This document shows positions 10,927 to 56,580 of a DNA stretch of 64,000 nt, one piece after another. The DNA lies in NCBI GenBank assembly GCA_041653535.1, contig JBAZFH010000005.1:12012-76011 (forward strand). Reading direction: 5' to 3'. This DNA comes from Patescibacteria group bacterium. GTDB taxonomy: Bacteria; Patescibacteriota; Patescibacteriia; JACRDY01. The notes under the pieces were generated by a model that was not told the origin of the DNA, did no database searches, and saw nothing but the letters and a program-made list of their open reading frames with translations. How positions within the stretch are numbered: position 1 is the first letter of the stretch; every line of letters begins with the position of its first letter. The translations under genes and the position numbers were made by a program.

Positions 10927-10932
10927 AATTTT

Positions 10933-11005
10933 GCGGTCGTAGCTCAATGGATAGAGCACTTGGCTTCGGACCAAGGGGTTGCGGGTTCGACTCCTGCCGA
11001 CCGCG
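10933..11005 (+). tRNA. tRNA-Arg (anticodon UCG)
   Basis: Hand-folded cloverleaf: acceptor GCGGTCG/CGACCGC, D-arm GCTC-AATGGATA-GAGC, anticodon loop CTTCGGA, T-arm GCGGG-TTCGACT-CCTGC. CCA is not encoded. Confidence 0.85.
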
Positions 11006-11021
11006 ATTTATTTAAATTTAC

Positions 11022-11122
11022 GGGGTGTTAGCTCAATGGTAGAGCAGTTGCCTCTTAAGCAATTGGTTAGAGGTTTGTCCCTTCGGGACATCTCCCGTAG
11101 GGAGACAAATCCTCTACATCCA
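11022..11122 (+). tRNA. tRNA-Lys(CUU)-like gene carrying a 32-nt insertion inside the T-loop and a degenerate 3' acceptor strand; possibly a pseudogene or an intron-like insertion
   Basis: Identical to the intact tRNA-Lys copy through the anticodon arm. The T-arm reads AGAGG-TT[tgtcccttcgggacatctcccgtagggagaca]AATCCTCT. The insert folds into two hairpins, one with a C(UUCG)G tetraloop. The 3' end ACATCCA mispairs with GGGGTGT. Confidence 0.4.
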
Positions 11123-11148: not shown

Positions 11149-11220
11149 GGGGTGTTAGCTCAATGGTAGAGCAGTTGCCTCTTAAGCAATTGGTTAGAGG
11201 TTCAAATCCTCTACACCCCA
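11149..11220 (+). tRNA. tRNA-Lys (anticodon CUU), intact
   Basis: Acceptor GGGGTGT/ACACCCC, D-arm GCTC-AATGGTA-GAGC, anticodon loop CTCTTAA, T-arm AGAGG-TTCAAAT-CCTCT, discriminator A. Confidence 0.85.
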
Positions 11221-11240
11221 CTTTCAATAAAATTAACCGA

Positions 11241-53180: not shown

Positions 53181-53355
53181 AGGGGCGAGTATATGGTATA
53201 TAGCGAATAAACCAAGTTCCTGCATACCGCATACCGTTTTTGATCCTGGTCCGACACGGCCTCTGGCTTGTCCGCCCGTTGGAGGACCGTGTTATGGAGT
53301 TTAGTGAGTCAATCACAATAACACGCCCAGAGGGCGTGTCGCTCCGCACATACTC

Positions 53356-53384
53356 ATTGACAAATCAAACCTATTCTGATATAT
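53356..53384 (+). promoter_or_regulatory. Sigma70-like promoter for rnpB (TTGACA-17-TATATT)
   Basis: Consensus-like hexamers place the TSS about 6 nt later, at the first nucleotide of the P1 helix. Confidence 0.55.
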
Positions 53385-53390
53385 TGCTAG

Positions 53391-54058
53391 AGCTTAAGTA
53401 AGCAAGATGACCGCCCCCCACTTTCTATGTTTTATGTCTACATTTTAAAAAGCCAAAAAGACGACAAGCTTTATATTGGCTTTACTAGTGACTTAAAACG
53501 CAGATTTCAGGAACACCAAAATAAAGAGAATAAATCGACAAAAAACAGAACTCCTTTTATTTTGGTCTACTACGAATCCTATCGTTCAAAATCAGACGCG
53601 ATGAAACGGGAGAAAAATTTAAAACAGTTTAAAAACAGCTACTCTCATCTAAAAAAGCGTCTTGGCGATAGCCTTAAAACATAGAAAATGGGGGGAGGAA
53701 AGTCCGAACACCCCTCTGGCTGTAAAGCTAGAGTGACAAAGAGAGTCGCTAACGGCGACCGGGAGTAATCCTAGGGAAAGTGTCACAGAGACAATACTAT
53801 CCCCCACATATTATGTGGGGGACAAAGGTGAAAAGAGAAAAGGTGTATTTTTAGAAAATCATATGATTTCTAAAGACTGCTACTTTTCTTCCTCTTGGGC
53901 GACCAAGATGTGATGGTAAACCCTCTCTGGTGCAAGAGCCAATTTGGTTGCTCGCTTGATCCTGTCAGCAATGGCAGGACTAGATAGATGGTCATCCTCC
54001 CTCACATAATTTATGTGGGGGATGACAGAATTCGGCTTACCAGCTTGCTTAAGCAATA
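53391..54058 (+). ncRNA. rnpB: RNase P RNA (bacterial) with a roughly 270-nt insertion in P3 that encodes a GIY-YIG protein
   Basis: P4 5' strand GGAGGAAAGTCCG at 53695-53707. GGGAAAGTGTCACAGAGA (P10/11 region). 3' ACAGAATTCGGCTTA...CTTGCTTAAGC pairs with the 5' GCTTAAGTAAGCAAG as P1. Terminator at 54059-54093. Confidence 0.7.
53427..53684 (+). CDS. GIY-YIG domain protein (UPF0213-like, 85 aa) encoded within the P3 helix insertion of rnpB
   Basis: MFYVYILKSQKDDKLYIGFTSDLKRRFQEH is a GIY-YIG motif. The start codon sits in the 5' strand, and the stop codon in the 3' strand, of a 13-bp extended P3 stem (tttctatgtttta/taaaacatagaaa). Confidence 0.7.
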   Translation: MFYVYILKSQKDDKLYIGFTSDLKRRFQEHQNKENKSTKNRTPFILVYYESYRSKSDAMKREKNLKQFKNSYSHLKKRLGDSLKT

Positions 54059-54189
54059 AAAATCCGCCGGTTAATCACCAGCGGTTTTTTATTTTATTCT
54101 CCTACTCGCGTTATTGACACTTTTACCAAAACCTGATAAGCTTTTTTATTCGTTCTTACAAGAATCAATTAACCAAAAAGGAGACGCCT

Positions 54190-54648
54190 ATGTTTGGGTT
54201 TTGTATTGCCCTGTTGATATTTGTTTTTAGTTTTATCTTCAACACCCTGTCTGAAGGCATCAGCTCAGCCGGACACTTCCTCTACATTTGGAATTGGGTT
54301 TTTGGCATCGGTAAAGTCGTACTTCTGAGTTTGGTCGCCTTCGGCATTACCGGTTTTATCGGTCTTGGCGGCGCTGGCGCCGCTAGCCAAAAATGGAGCT
54401 CGCGCGGTGCGATGATCCTAGGAGGACTGCTTGGCGCTGGCGCTGGGGGCGTGGTCTCGGGTCTGATCTTCATCAAGGCTTTGATCAAAAACGCACTGCT
54501 GATCCTAGGCGCTTACCTGATCACCCTCTCCGGCACCGCCAGTATGTCTTTTGATCAGTTCGACAAAACCAAACTGTTCGTCGGACTGGCAATAGTGGTC
54601 ATCGCCTTATTGTTATTCCGTAAAAAAAGTAAGGATTCATCCAAATAA
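54190..54648 (+). CDS. small polytopic membrane protein, paralog 1
   Basis: Shares ISSAGHFLYIWNWVF and IGAYLITLSGTASM(S/T)FDQFDKTKLFVGLAIV with 54847..55329. Each has its own copy of the promoter-like sequence ttattgacacttttaccaaaacctgataagctttt and its own terminator. Confidence 0.5.
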   Translation: MFGFCIALLIFVFSFIFNTLSEGISSAGHFLYIWNWVFGIGKVVLLSLVAFGITGFIGLGGAGAASQKWSSRGAMILGGLLGAGAGGVVSGLIFIKALIKNALLILGAYLITLSGTASMSFDQFDKTKLFVGLAIVVIALLLFRKKSKDSSK

Positions 54649-54846: not shown

Positions 54847-55329
54847 ATGAGTGACAAGATGTTAGGTTTTCTAATCGCAGCGATCGCATTTGTTGTCAAC
54901 AACCTTTTTTTCAAAACCCTACCCGAAAGCATCAGTTCGGCCGGACATTTTCTTTATATCTGGAACTGGGTCTTCGCCGGACTCAACGTTGCGTTGTCTG
55001 TTTGTTTCTCCCTTGGTTTAATCAACCTTACTGTCAACAGCACCGACGCTGATGCCGCGAAAGAAGCTACGAAAGCTATCAAAAATATGCTCCGAATCGG
55101 ATCCGGCGGCGTAATGTCCAAAATCAATTTCATCAAAATGCTGATCAGAAACACCTTGAGTATCATCGGCGCTTACCTGATCACCCTCTCCGGCACCGCC
55201 AGTATGACCTTTGATCAGTTCGACAAAACCAAGCTGTTCGTCGGACTGGCAATAGTGGGCGTTGCCTTATTCCTCTCTAAGAAAAAAGTCGTAGGGGTTG
55301 TCATGATCAATGACCGTGAAACCGCCTAA
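54847..55329 (+). CDS. small polytopic membrane protein, paralog 2
   Basis: See paralog 1. AAGGAGG SD. Confidence 0.5.
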   Translation: MSDKMLGFLIAAIAFVVNNLFFKTLPESISSAGHFLYIWNWVFAGLNVALSVCFSLGLINLTVNSTDADAAKEATKAIKNMLRIGSGGVMSKINFIKMLIRNTLSIIGAYLITLSGTASMTFDQFDKTKLFVGLAIVGVALFLSKKKVVGVVMINDRETA

Positions 55330-55385: not shown

Positions 55386-56375
55386 TTAAACCAACCCAAC
55401 AATCTCTCTCACCTCCGCCATAGTTTGACTAGCAATCTTTTGCGCGGTAGCGGCTCCCTCTGTCATTACCTTGTCGACATATTTACTATCTTTTTCTAAC
55501 TTTTTCCGGCGATCACGAAAGTCTTTAAAATAATTAGCGATATCATCGGCTAACTGCGCTTTGAACTCACCAAACTTTATCTTCTTTTGCTCTTTTTGTT
55601 TAAAGAAGTATTCTACCGTGTCGGGATGAGAAAAATTTTCGAGGAGTAGTAGTAGGTTGGTACCACCGACCGATTCTCCACTACCTTCGTCAGACACCGC
55701 GCGACTCAATTTCTTTTTGATTACTTCCGGGTCGTCGTTGATACCGATACAATGATTTTCACCCAAACTTTTACTCATCTTTTTCTCTGGAGTGAGCAGG
55801 CTCATTATTTTTGGAGTGTTAGTCAATACTTCTTTTGGCTCAGCAAAATAATCAGTCTTATACTTTTGGTTAAACTTGCGAGCCGCCAGACGAGTCAGCT
55901 CAACATGCTGTACCTGGTCTTGACCCACCGGCACTGCCAAAGCGTGATAAAGCAAAATATCAGCCGCCTGCAAAACGGGATAGTCAAAAAGACCCATGTT
56001 AATATTTGCTTTTTGTCGAGCTGCTTTGTCTTTAAACTGTGTCATCCTTTCCAGCTCCGCTACTGGCAATAAAGTATTAAAAATCCAAGCAAGCTCGGTA
56101 TGACCAGTTACTTGTGACTGAAGAAAAATCGTCGATTTACTCGGATCGATACCAGCTGCCAAATAATCCATGATCAACCCTCGAGAACGAGCGCGAAGCT
56201 GCTCCGGATCACTATTTTCTGTCATTGCATGGTAGTCGGCAATAAAGAAAAAACATTGATATTTGGAGCTGTTTTGCAATTCAACAAAGTTTTTGAGCGA
56301 ACCGAGATAATTGCCCACGTGCAGTTCGCCACTGGGTTGAATACCGGAAACTATGATTGGTTTGATTGTTTTCAT
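55386..56375 (-). CDS. trpS: tryptophanyl-tRNA synthetase
   Basis: PSGELHVGNYLG (HIGH-type), KMSKS, and the overall TrpRS pattern. Start at MKTIKPII; the upstream extension of the track ORF runs into the repeat array. Confidence 0.9.
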   Translation of the reverse strand: MKTIKPIIVSGIQPSGELHVGNYLGSLKNFVELQNSSKYQCFFFIADYHAMTENSDPEQLRARSRGLIMDYLAAGIDPSKSTIFLQSQVTGHTELAWIFNTLLPVAELERMTQFKDKAARQKANINMGLFDYPVLQAADILLYHALAVPVGQDQVQHVELTRLAARKFNQKYKTDYFAEPKEVLTNTPKIMSLLTPEKKMSKSLGENHCIGINDDPEVIKKKLSRAVSDEGSGESVGGTNLLLLLENFSHPDTVEYFFKQKEQKKIKFGEFKAQLADDIANYFKDFRDRRKKLEKDSKYVDKVMTEGAATAQKIASQTMAEVREIVGLV

Positions 56376-56400
56376 ATGTTTTAATTTTAGCTTTAATTCC

Positions 56401-56580
56401 TCCCCCTGCCAAGGGGGAGATGTCGCGAAGCGACAGAGGGGGTGAATGCGACTCCCTGCCAAGGGGGAGATGTCGCGAAGCGACAGAGGGGGTGAATGCG
56501 ACTCCCTGCCAAGGGGGAGATGTCGCGAAGCGACAGAGGGGGTGAATGCGACTCCCTGCCAAGGGGGAGTCGCTTCCTGT
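56401..56580. repeat. 50-bp GC-rich tandem repeat, 3.6 copies, in the trpS 5' leader
   Basis: Unit tccctgccaagggggagatgtcgcgaagcgacagagggggtgaatgcgac. Contains hairpins ctccc-tgccaag-gggag and gtcgc-gaa-gcgac. Sits between the T-box terminator and the trpS SD. Confidence 0.85.

Follow-up and report, generated by a model that had tools for sequence, protein, structure and literature searches.

RNase P RNA is among the most conserved of RNAs, and at the locus described here a protein gene sits in, and in structure replaces, one of its universal helices. The locus lies in a stretch of 64,000 nucleotides from a Patescibacteria group bacterium (NCBI GenBank assembly GCA_041653535.1, contig JBAZFH010000005.1, positions 12,012 to 76,011 of the forward strand), the whole of which is referred to below as the window. 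The original prediction for this stretch, made from the sequence, had placed an 85-aa GIY-YIG open reading frame (ORF) exactly at helix P3 of an RNase P RNA gene (rnpB) and had proposed a self-contained mobile insertion. Our analysis indicates that P3 of this gene is probably a selfish mobile GIY-YIG cassette, whose end stem serves as P3 and whose ORF is expressed from the rnpB transcript.

The host gene was matched by the Rfam model of bacterial class A RNase P RNA, RF00010, at 164 bits compared to a gathering score of 100 (E 4.6e-51), although the model failed to place the true 5' strands of P1 to P3. The cmscan alignment covered 53654-54055 only and did not span the insert; it folded the final part of the ORF into a spurious P1/P3, and the 5' end of rnpB was misplaced by 262 nt. 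We read the true 5' part of the gene (P1 and P2) directly from the sequence. The class A core elements GAGGAAAGUCC (J3/4-P4), AGGGAAAGUG.CACAGA and ACAGAA..CGGCUUA (P4 3'), together with the P1 and P2 pairings, all occur in the expected order and spacing, and conserved blocks are found at 53694-53706 (GGAGGAAAGTCCG; RNA form GGAGGAAAGUCCG), 53774-53791 (GGGAAAGTGTCACAGAGA; RNA form GGGAAAGUGUCACAGAGA) and 54025-54039 (ACAGAATTCGGCTTA). All of the rnpB elements named in the original prediction were recovered, with coordinates that agreed to within 1-2 nt; the P1 pairing, previously drawn between 53392-53406 and 54045-54055, is present but now joins 53392-53403 to 54043-54054 (Table 1). The promoter hexamers match consensus at 11 of 12 positions, and the transcript is predicted to start at about 53392, the first base of P1. 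As had been anticipated, the flanks of the insert scored as RNase P RNA in the Rfam scan, and the same scan detected no second rnpB in the 64-kb window. Judged by its sequence, the locus is a complete, independently transcribed rnpB gene.

That the locus is instead an assembly chimera or a fragment of an rnpB pseudogene, a concern that attaches to its origin in a metagenome-assembled genome (MAG), is scarcely credible. The same contig, with an identical ORF, is present in an independent Logan assembly of SRR18595300, and the neighboring adenylosuccinate synthetase (AdSS) protein is recorded in NCBI, JGI and Logan data. In samples unrelated to this one, no fewer than 19 further rnpB genes contain a GIY-YIG ORF, 14 of them in P3, and the promoter, the terminator and all of the core elements are in place. 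An assembly artefact is excluded.

Table 1. Coordinates of features at the rnpB locus of the window, and contexts of related cassettes in the family set.
Feature	Position or loci	Strand or orientation	Details
RNase P RNA gene rnpB, class A, cassette included	53392-54054	+	663 nt; RF00010 and reading of the sequence
rnpB promoter, sigma-70-type, predicted	53357-53385	+	TTGACA 53357-53362, 17-nt spacer with TG extension, TATATT 53380-53385
P1 5' strand GCUUAAGUAAGC	53392-53403	+	pairs with 54043-54054; 12 continuous pairs, one U.G
P2 5' strand GAUGACC	53406-53412	+	pairs with GGUCAUC 53990-53996; 7 bp
GIY-YIG cassette filling the whole P3 position	53414-53695	+	282 bp; begins directly after P2 and ends directly before AGGAAAGUCCG
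Left arm of terminal inverted repeat, P3 5' strand: CCCCCCACTTTCTATGTTTTA	53414-53434	+	contains ATG
ORF, 85 codons, stand-alone GIY-YIG domain (UPF0213/SLX1-like)	53427-53684	+	Pfam, profile and fold comparison
Right arm of terminal inverted repeat, P3 3' strand: TAAAACATAGAAAATGGGGGG	53675-53695	+	contains TAG stop
J3/4 and P4 5' strand AGGAAAGUCCG	53696-53706	+	universally conserved core
P12 tip CCCCCACAUA-U-UAUGUGGGGG	53801-53821	+	cassette-type end motif CCCCCAC/GTGGGGG
P19-like hairpin between P2 3' and P4 3': CCCUCACAUAA-UU-UAUGUGGGGG	53999-54021	+	motif CCCCCAC/GTGGGGG
P4 3' strand and conserved region ACAGAAUUCGGCUUA	54025-54039	+	RF00010 alignment and reading of the sequence
P1 3' strand GCUUGCUUAAGC	54043-54054	+	reading of the sequence
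Terminator-like hairpin CCGCCGGU/ACCAGCGG, then T run	54064-54098	+	sequence and inverted-repeat search
Cassette in rnpB	L003, L026, L054, L056, L065	co-oriented	5 loci
Cassette inside 23S rRNA	L008, L055, L068	co-oriented	3 loci
Cassette upstream of 23S rRNA	L057	co-oriented	1 locus
Cassette inside 16S rRNA	L036	co-oriented	1 locus
Cassette upstream of tmRNA	L037, L040	co-oriented	2 loci
Cassette upstream of tRNA	27 loci	co-oriented	27

The insert occupies the position of P3 with no remainder. Its terminal repeat (CCCCCCAC.../...TGGGGGG) begins directly after P2 and ends directly before AGGAAAGUCC; because the repeat spans exactly this interval, its stem is the sole P3 of the RNA, and removal of the 282 bp leaves no P3 between P2 and P4. 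The stem consists of 7 bp, one C.A mismatch and a further 13 bp (20 bp in total), is present in the minimum-free-energy fold (z = -5.1 compared to shuffles), and was recovered in an inverted-repeat search as a 30-nt repeat with 87% complementarity. The start of P1 lies ~305 nt from P4, in line with the ~300 nt given originally, and the ATG (53427-53429) and TAG (53682-53684) both fall at paired positions, as had likewise been noted. The original description of the insert as an extended P3 stem requires revision: the stem is there, but rather than extending a native P3 it represents the cassette's own terminal repeat, the termini of which recur at unrelated sites. The ribozyme core is most likely intact in cassette-bearing rnpB, with the end stem doing the structural job of P3. 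No Shine-Dalgarno motif precedes the cassette ORF in the window, and no convincing promoter was found between the start of rnpB and its ATG.

Group I introns classically carry GIY-YIG genes as passengers, and the NCBIfam matches of the protein, although all sub-threshold, included the 'group I intron endonuclease' family TIGR01453 (25.6 bits compared to a cut-off of 56). We nonetheless attach almost no probability to a reading of the insert as a self-splicing intron, of group I or group II, that harbors a homing endonuclease gene. A permissively filtered Rfam scan of 53350-54100 returned no intron family at E <= 10, with RF00010 alone near its gathering threshold, and the non-coding part of the insert amounts to 24 nt (13 nt ahead of the ATG and 11 nt past the stop), leaving no room for a ribozyme core; we rejected the intron on these two grounds. 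The GIY-YIG ORFs of rRNA inserts in the candidate phyla radiation (CPR) likewise all lie outside introns of group I or II (Tsurumaki et al. 2024, PMC11270868).

The predicted protein matched Pfam GIY-YIG (PF01541) over profile positions 1-74 of 78 (E 4.8e-19; 68.9 bits compared to a cut-off of 22.6). An alignment of 41 family sequences contains 17 invariant residues, all of which are present in the window protein; Y3/Y5, Y16-I17-G18, R26 and E62 are invariant or nearly so, are likewise present, and presumably correspond to I-TevI residues. A profile built from the 41 members found UPF0213 BH0048 (1zg2) as its best match (E 3.9e-12, 37% identity), with EF2693 (1ywl) of the same family, SLX1 and the I-TevI catalytic domain following in that order, the last of these weakly (E 0.011). 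The AlphaFold2 model (mean predicted local distance difference test score 90.6) matched the folds of 1zg2, SLX1, I-TevI and UvrC, and fold comparison ranked the relatives in the same order as the profile search, with TM-scores for SLX1, normalised to the query, of 0.57-0.67. Neither Pfam, the profile search nor the model revealed a DNA-binding domain in the 85 residues. Because the closest matches are UPF0213 and SLX1, the catalytic residues are conserved and no further domain is present, the cassette protein appears to consist of the catalytic domain and nothing more, and to stand closer to structure-specific nucleases than to the long, site-specific homing enzymes. The homing nuclease originally suggested is therefore one option only, and the alternative suggestion of a maturase found no supporting evidence. 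A phage origin was rejected, the only matches in 50,697 phage records having 46% identity or less.

Hairpin-bounded GIY-YIG cassettes of ~290 bp form a large family, found mostly in Patescibacteria, and the window cassette is one of them. Relatives of its protein number in the hundreds (83-100 aa, 55-72% identity), and their named sources are mostly Patescibacteria/CPR; some MAG titles name Gammaproteobacteria, Bdellovibrionales, Omnitrophota or Elusimicrobia, labels that we took as given. From at least 560 relatives we drew a family set of 80 loci (designated by L-numbers) in species-representative genomes, and scanned these with Rfam and with rnpB motifs. Cassette length proved uniform (median 291.5 bp, interquartile range 287-298), and at least 39 of the 80 ORFs reside inside, or no more than ~70 nt upstream of, a co-oriented stable-RNA gene (Table 1). 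The other loci, L071 (below) aside, are short intergenic spacers, mostly between co-oriented ORFs; for the 37 without an RNA neighbor, a permissive Rfam scan returned only an L10 leader beside L063. Cassettes within rnpB occupy P3 in the window and L065, P9 in L054 (...GGAAG-cassette-GGAAAGUGCCACAGAAA), and the P15-17 region in L003, L026 and L056 (GGUGCAA...cassette...GCUCGAG). Shine-Dalgarno-like motifs preceded 6 of the 80 cassette ORFs compared to 11 of 34 host ORFs, a difference that is a hint only, as the host starts were crudely assigned.

Several loci of the family set displayed individual peculiarities. The sole exception to co-orientation is L071 (1164-1503), in which the cassette, flanked by an 8-nt repeat, runs at its right end into the 3' (CCA) terminus of a tRNA gene that lies on the opposite strand. 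A tRNA-like 5' end lies to the right of the cassette in L007, L027 and L044, where no tRNA was called, the next tRNA match being ~500 nt away in L027 and L044; these right flanks may belong to intron-containing tRNAs or to further cassette copies. In the rnpB of L026, P3 is formed by an unrelated 20-bp stem that closes a loop of ~70 nt, and a direct repeat of ~120 nt is located after the P4 5' strand (1168-1290) and again before the P4 3' strand (1815-1937).

What unites these loci, apart from the protein, is their ends, which are conserved as CCCCNCAC.../...GTGNGGGG at rnpB, rRNA, tRNA, tmRNA and intergenic sites. The outermost bases are CCCCCCACCAC/GTGGTGGGGGG, CCCCCACAC/GTGTGGGGG or, at tRNA sites, GCCCCTCAC/GTGAGGGGC, and protein clades follow the end type of the cassette. 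At least 10 consecutive pairs join the two ends in 72 of the 80 loci (median longest run 19), and the end duplex has a median energy of -44 kcal/mol, with z typically between -4 and -10 compared to shuffled partners. In 60 of the 80 loci every base of the stop codon is paired; the ATG is paired at least in part in 58. We measured covariation in 53 cassettes anchored solely on a 6-nt outer anchor, such that pairs 1-6 were paired by construction and pairs 7-18 were not. Standard pairs accounted for 92.1% of cells, compared to 61.9% in shuffles and 42-59% with slid partners; double-sided changes numbered 302 compared to 102 in shuffles; and the covariation score was 0.713 compared to 0.161, a value reached by none of 500 shuffles. 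The inner stem is variable in sequence, with compensating changes. G.U pairs were rare (~3% of paired cells), suggesting that complementarity is kept at the DNA level too.

We surveyed P3 more widely by scanning JGI metagenome contigs for the junction TGGGGGGAGGAAAGTCCG, a pattern that required exactly the P3 3' strand sequence that also ends P3 in ordinary bacteria; 120 rnpB loci were listed, of at least 120 that exist. Among these listed matches, 14 (~12%) contain a GIY-YIG ORF in P3, 12 of them complete (P3 of 282-316 nt) and 2 cut by contig ends, while 5 contain an ORF or part of one in another rnpB helix; protein matches fell on the rnpB strand in 20 of 20 cases, the remnant in L116 included. 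The P3 5' strand CCCCCCA was found at 29 of the listed loci, whose P3 lengths form a series: 25 nt when bare, 58-124 nt without an ORF, 141-167 nt with remnants and ~285 nt with an ORF. The bare 25-nt hairpin is that of L185/L186, CCCCCCACCAAAU-UUUGGUGGGGGG (also written CCCCCCACCAAAT-TTTGGTGGGGGG). Remnants are illustrated by L116, in which P3 reads MFYVYVLKSKLDGSLYIGETSDLRK, an internal deletion with frameshift, and ...FKNSYTEPKKRLINSL, and by L135, which retains the first and last codons only, between ends of the window type. Cassettes recur at P3; other lineages have them in P9, P12 and P15-17. The length series itself resembles the pattern of gain and decay expected of a selfish gene.

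Additional signs of mobility come from the flanks. Direct repeats of at least 5 nt border 22 of 56 cassettes compared to 2% with permuted flanks. Nearly all of these repeats are tRNA 5' ends, and their length is ambiguous owing to the G run: at tRNA sites the first 9-11 nt of the tRNA are duplicated directly upstream of the left end of the cassette, and the right-end G run also serves as the 5' GGG of the tRNA. These flanking repeats look like target-site duplications. In L006 (1469-2073), a tRNA gene is preceded by two identical cassettes arranged in tandem; after each comes CCAGTAG, corresponding to tRNA positions 4-10, and the same 7 nt stand between the two. A different arrangement was seen in L030 and L067 (~1439-1825), where the ORF lies between two 38-nt solo hairpins and outside the repeat, with a copy of the tRNA 5' end after each hairpin.

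As with transposons and miniature inverted-repeat transposable elements (MITEs), the inverted ends occur at unrelated sites and are shared by non-autonomous derivatives. ORF-less copies with family ends were found in L009, L045, L056, L063, L065, L067 and L080. The rnpB of L056 (1124-1777), from a Yonathbacteria MAG, contains three cassette copies in one gene: two near-identical ORF-less copies of ~98 nt, in P3 and after P4/P5, and an ORF-bearing copy in P15-17. The rnpB of L065 has a 109-nt ORF-less copy in P12, the same helix that bears the end motif in the window. An 83-nt ORF-less copy in L063 (2931-3050) has TTGAC on both sides, the right-hand one forming the -35 box of a perfect TTGACA-17-TATAAT promoter. 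Upstream of rnpB in L122, the right end of an ORF-less cassette directly adjoins a TTGACA -35 box. Cassettes may target or supply promoter -35 elements (L063, L122). In the window, CCC[CT]CAC occurs 4 times, 3 of them inside rnpB, and no further copy of the cassette ORF was found elsewhere in the 64 kb; the P12 tip and the P19-like hairpin (Table 1) may be solo or decayed cassette copies. The family ends, the derivatives and the flanking repeats support the proposal that the insert is a self-contained mobile element.

The conservation of the ORF admits a different interpretation, namely that it represents a domesticated host nuclease acting in DNA repair or precursor-RNA processing, the synthesis of which is coupled to stable-RNA transcription, with the stem as a regulatory or processing signal. 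Such a role would fit a frame that is intact, and 17 residues that are invariant, among hosts that share no more than 50-69% identity in their rnpB cores, as well as the strict co-orientation (20/20 among the matches listed and at least 39 RNA-linked loci) and the lack of signs of recent transfer. We nevertheless regard domestication as improbable. The distribution is patchy, with the ORF in P3 of only ~12% of the listed rnpB (14/120) with this P3 strand; sites vary by lineage, and some genomes or genes have several copies, as in the three of L056 rnpB. Tandem copies, ORF-less copies and frameshifted remnants are likewise at odds with a host function, and we know of no GIY-YIG enzyme that processes RNA.

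Several observations weigh against the interpretation of P3 as a selfish mobile cassette. The window copy and the other rnpB copies lack a flanking direct repeat. Of the insert-free alleles that the original prediction proposed to seek in related genomes, ORF-less or short P3 forms were found in other lineages, but none in a close relative, the nearest AdSS homologue being 47% identical. An all-against-all BLAST comparison of 92 rnpB cores yielded no pair above ~85% core identity that differed in P3 state, the best partial matches being 72-86% over 290 nt or less. Site-specific homing left no clearer trace: P3 is filled, ORF-less or short in different lineages, with no close pair of filled and empty sites and no single clade of P3 copies (85-aa tree, weak), and the DNA-binding module of homing endonucleases is missing from a protein that consists of the catalytic domain only. 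The copies are old, with proteins 55-81% and host rnpB cores 50-69% identical, and near-identical copies were seen solely in the L006 tandem. Because the copies are old, those in P3 form no clade and near-identity is confined to L006, the data give no sign of recent movement. The long persistence of intact ORFs could also indicate a benefit to the host.

The boundary of the moving unit is a further point of weakness. In many ordinary bacteria the last bases of P3, ahead of AGGAAAGUCC, are GUGGGGGG, and the short P3 hairpins of CPR look similar to cassette ends; the C6/G6 base of the stem could therefore be native P3, and the unit that moves could be either the whole hairpin or the ORF with the inner stem. 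In its full form this alternative holds that the hairpin CCCCCCAC...GTGGGGGG is native or spreads independently as the real P3, that the invader comprises the ORF and inner stem only, and that the protein is a homing-type nuclease which, as a dimer on the palindromic hairpin, inserts its gene into the loop. ORF-less short CPR P3 hairpins of the same sequence (L185/L186, L157, L110, L118) are consistent with this proposal, as are the solo motif hairpins that form P12 and the P19-like helix in the window. The agreement between protein clades and end types would be expected of an enzyme that recognises the ends, and an 85-aa protein with no DNA-binding domain fits a dimer on a palindrome. In contrast, ORF-less hairpins at non-RNA sites with flanking repeats of their own (L063 TTGAC|...|TTGAC) suggest that the whole hairpin inserts as a unit; the ATG and the stop lie inside the stem in most copies; and L116 and L135 show that ORF-less P3 hairpins can be derived from cassettes by internal deletion. 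On balance we consider the native hairpin an unlikely explanation, though the foremost of the rivals discussed here.

We continue to favor the selfish cassette, and the following sequence of events would account for it. Cassettes would settle where a stable stem-loop is harmless or able to replace a host helix, namely in peripheral helices of RNase P RNA and rRNA, in the DNA just upstream of tRNA and tmRNA 5' ends, and in intergenic spacers, and the ORF would be expressed as a passenger of highly transcribed stable-RNA units. Strict co-orientation would be very unlikely if orientation were neutral. Placement on the strand of the host gene could be explained by the cassettes having no promoter or ribosome-binding site of their own, and the strict co-orientation (at least 39 loci, and 20/20 in the census), together with the absence of promoter and Shine-Dalgarno motifs, points to an ORF that relies on the transcript of its host gene. 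With the start codon buried, translation should be weak, the usual state for nucleases of this sort. The nuclease would act on DNA, cutting the palindromic ends or a cruciform, or else empty sites, so that the cassette is copied or retained; recognition of the ends or of a cruciform is suggested by the conserved palindromic ends, the rarity of G.U pairs and the SLX1-like fold.

At the RNA level, the long stem may be kept as an extended P3, or it may be cut by RNase III as happens in the intervening sequences of 23S rRNA; by analogy with these, RNase III could plausibly act on a near-perfect duplex of 20 bp. If it did, ~10 bp of P3 would remain as a stub, the RNase P RNA would consist of two pieces joined through P1, P2 and that stub, and the ORF would come free as an mRNA of its own. 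That such split RNAs can work has been shown by reconstituting E. coli M1 RNA from fragments. The locus thus raises the question of whether the ribozyme is active as a 663-nt RNA that doubles as an mRNA, or as two pieces.

A more far-reaching proposal, which we offer tentatively and would not wager on at even odds, is that the cassettes represent a new class of autonomous bacterial mobile element. Its sole protein, the 85-aa SLX1/UPF0213-like nuclease, would act on the palindromic ends of the element itself; the element would specialise in stable-RNA genes, replacing peripheral helices of RNase P RNA and rRNA, docking at tRNA and tmRNA genes on their GGG 5' ends, and leaving MITE-like ORF-less copies; and RNase P RNA would become either a bifunctional ribozyme-mRNA or, once cut by RNase III, a split, two-piece ribozyme.

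Other features of the window were noted in passing. Just downstream of rnpB, two adjacent ORFs (54190-54648 and 54847-55329) encode paralogous small membrane proteins of 152 and 160 aa that have in common SSAGHFLYIWNWVF and GAYLITLSGTASM.FDQFDKTKLFVGLAIV. A perfect tandem repeat at 56404-56569 (50-nt unit CCCTGCCAAGGGGGAGATGTCGCGAAGCGACAGAGGGGGTGAATGCGACT, 3.3 copies, 100% identity) overlaps the extended 5' end of a minus-strand Trp-tRNA-synthetase-like ORF (55386-56462). Between tRNA-Arg (10932-11006) and tRNA-Lys (11149-11221), a 61-nt segment (11022-11082) matched the tRNA model weakly at 33.4 bits but was not called by ARAGORN, and may be a truncated or odd tRNA.

The presence of such inserts bears on how RNase P RNA is annotated. 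Six cassette-bearing rnpB genes were available in genome assemblies (the window and five MAG loci), and three of them scored below the Rfam threshold (L003, 52.9 bits; L026, 86.8 bits; L056, 31.4 bits). There is thus a risk that rnpB is annotated as a truncated RNA beside a stray 'GIY-YIG nuclease' coding sequence, and inserts of this kind could be part of the reason why RNase P RNAs of complete CPR genomes are reported as 'missing' or 'diverged' (PMC8172020). Among the diverged RNase P RNAs of CPR, forms whose helices are greatly extended have been described with ORFs unmentioned (Lui et al. 2021, PMC8172020). In the literature, with subscription journals thinly covered, we found no report that a bacterial gene for RNase P RNA contains a protein gene, and none of the architecture of the cassettes or of the tRNA/tmRNA link. 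The defined anatomy of the cassette (conserved inverted ends, ~290 bp, codons within the stem) opens its mechanism of mobility to experiment.

Among known systems, the closest are GIY-YIG ORFs in non-intron inserts of CPR 16S and 23S rRNA genes (Tsurumaki et al. 2024, J Bacteriol, PMC11270868), with earlier CPR rRNA inserts of this sort attributed there to Brown et al. 2015. These share with the cassette the bacterial group and the protein family, lie at the tops or bases of stem-loops of a stable RNA and have no group I or group II ribozyme; L008, L036, L055 and L068 are the rRNA cases within our family. In contrast to these inserts, the host here is RNase P RNA, and the text of PMC11270868 contains no occurrence of 'RNase P' or 'tRNA', nor does it describe conserved inverted-repeat ends, codons in the stem, a link to tRNA or tmRNA 5' ends or ORF-less derivatives. 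The present findings extend the non-intron CPR rRNA inserts to RNase P RNA, tmRNA and tRNA loci.

The intervening sequences of 23S rRNA (Salmonella, Leptospira, Coxiella), some of which encode S23p/23S_rRNA_IVP and which are excised by RNase III without religation, also resemble the cassette. Both are stem-bounded inserts at a helix tip, the one described here being delimited by a near-perfect duplex of about two turns (20 bp, one mismatch); some of the intervening sequences contain a small ORF, their host RNA works in base-paired pieces and their distribution is patchy. The ORF family and the host RNA differ, and excision is known for the intervening sequences, whereas the cassette is known here from sequence alone. 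To our knowledge, none of them carries a nuclease. The introduction of PMC11270868 is to the same effect.

With respect to the protein, the best matches in sequence and fold are UPF0213/YhbQ proteins (1zg2 BH0048, 1ywl EF2693) and the SLX1 domain, each a single GIY-YIG domain of ~85-100 aa. We know of no UPF0213 or SLX1 protein that is encoded in an RNA gene or between inverted repeats, and SLX1 requires SLX4 and has a RING domain. The GIY-YIG homing endonucleases, such as I-TevI, encoded in group I introns, and phage T4's free-standing Seg enzymes, resemble the cassette in their catalytic domain, selfish inheritance, residence next to or within RNA genes (SegB lies in the T4 tRNA gene cluster) and buried start codons. 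I-TevI and Seg enzymes have at least 200 aa, including a linker and a DNA-binding domain that confers site specificity; the cassette protein, in contrast, is the catalytic domain alone and is associated with no intron. Finally, Rickettsia palindromic elements and MITEs are likewise short, have inverted-repeat ends, fold into hairpins, are tolerated in functional RNAs or proteins and include non-autonomous copies. These elements encode nothing or rely on a DDE transposase elsewhere, whereas the sole candidate mobility protein of the cassette is the GIY-YIG nuclease inside its hairpin.

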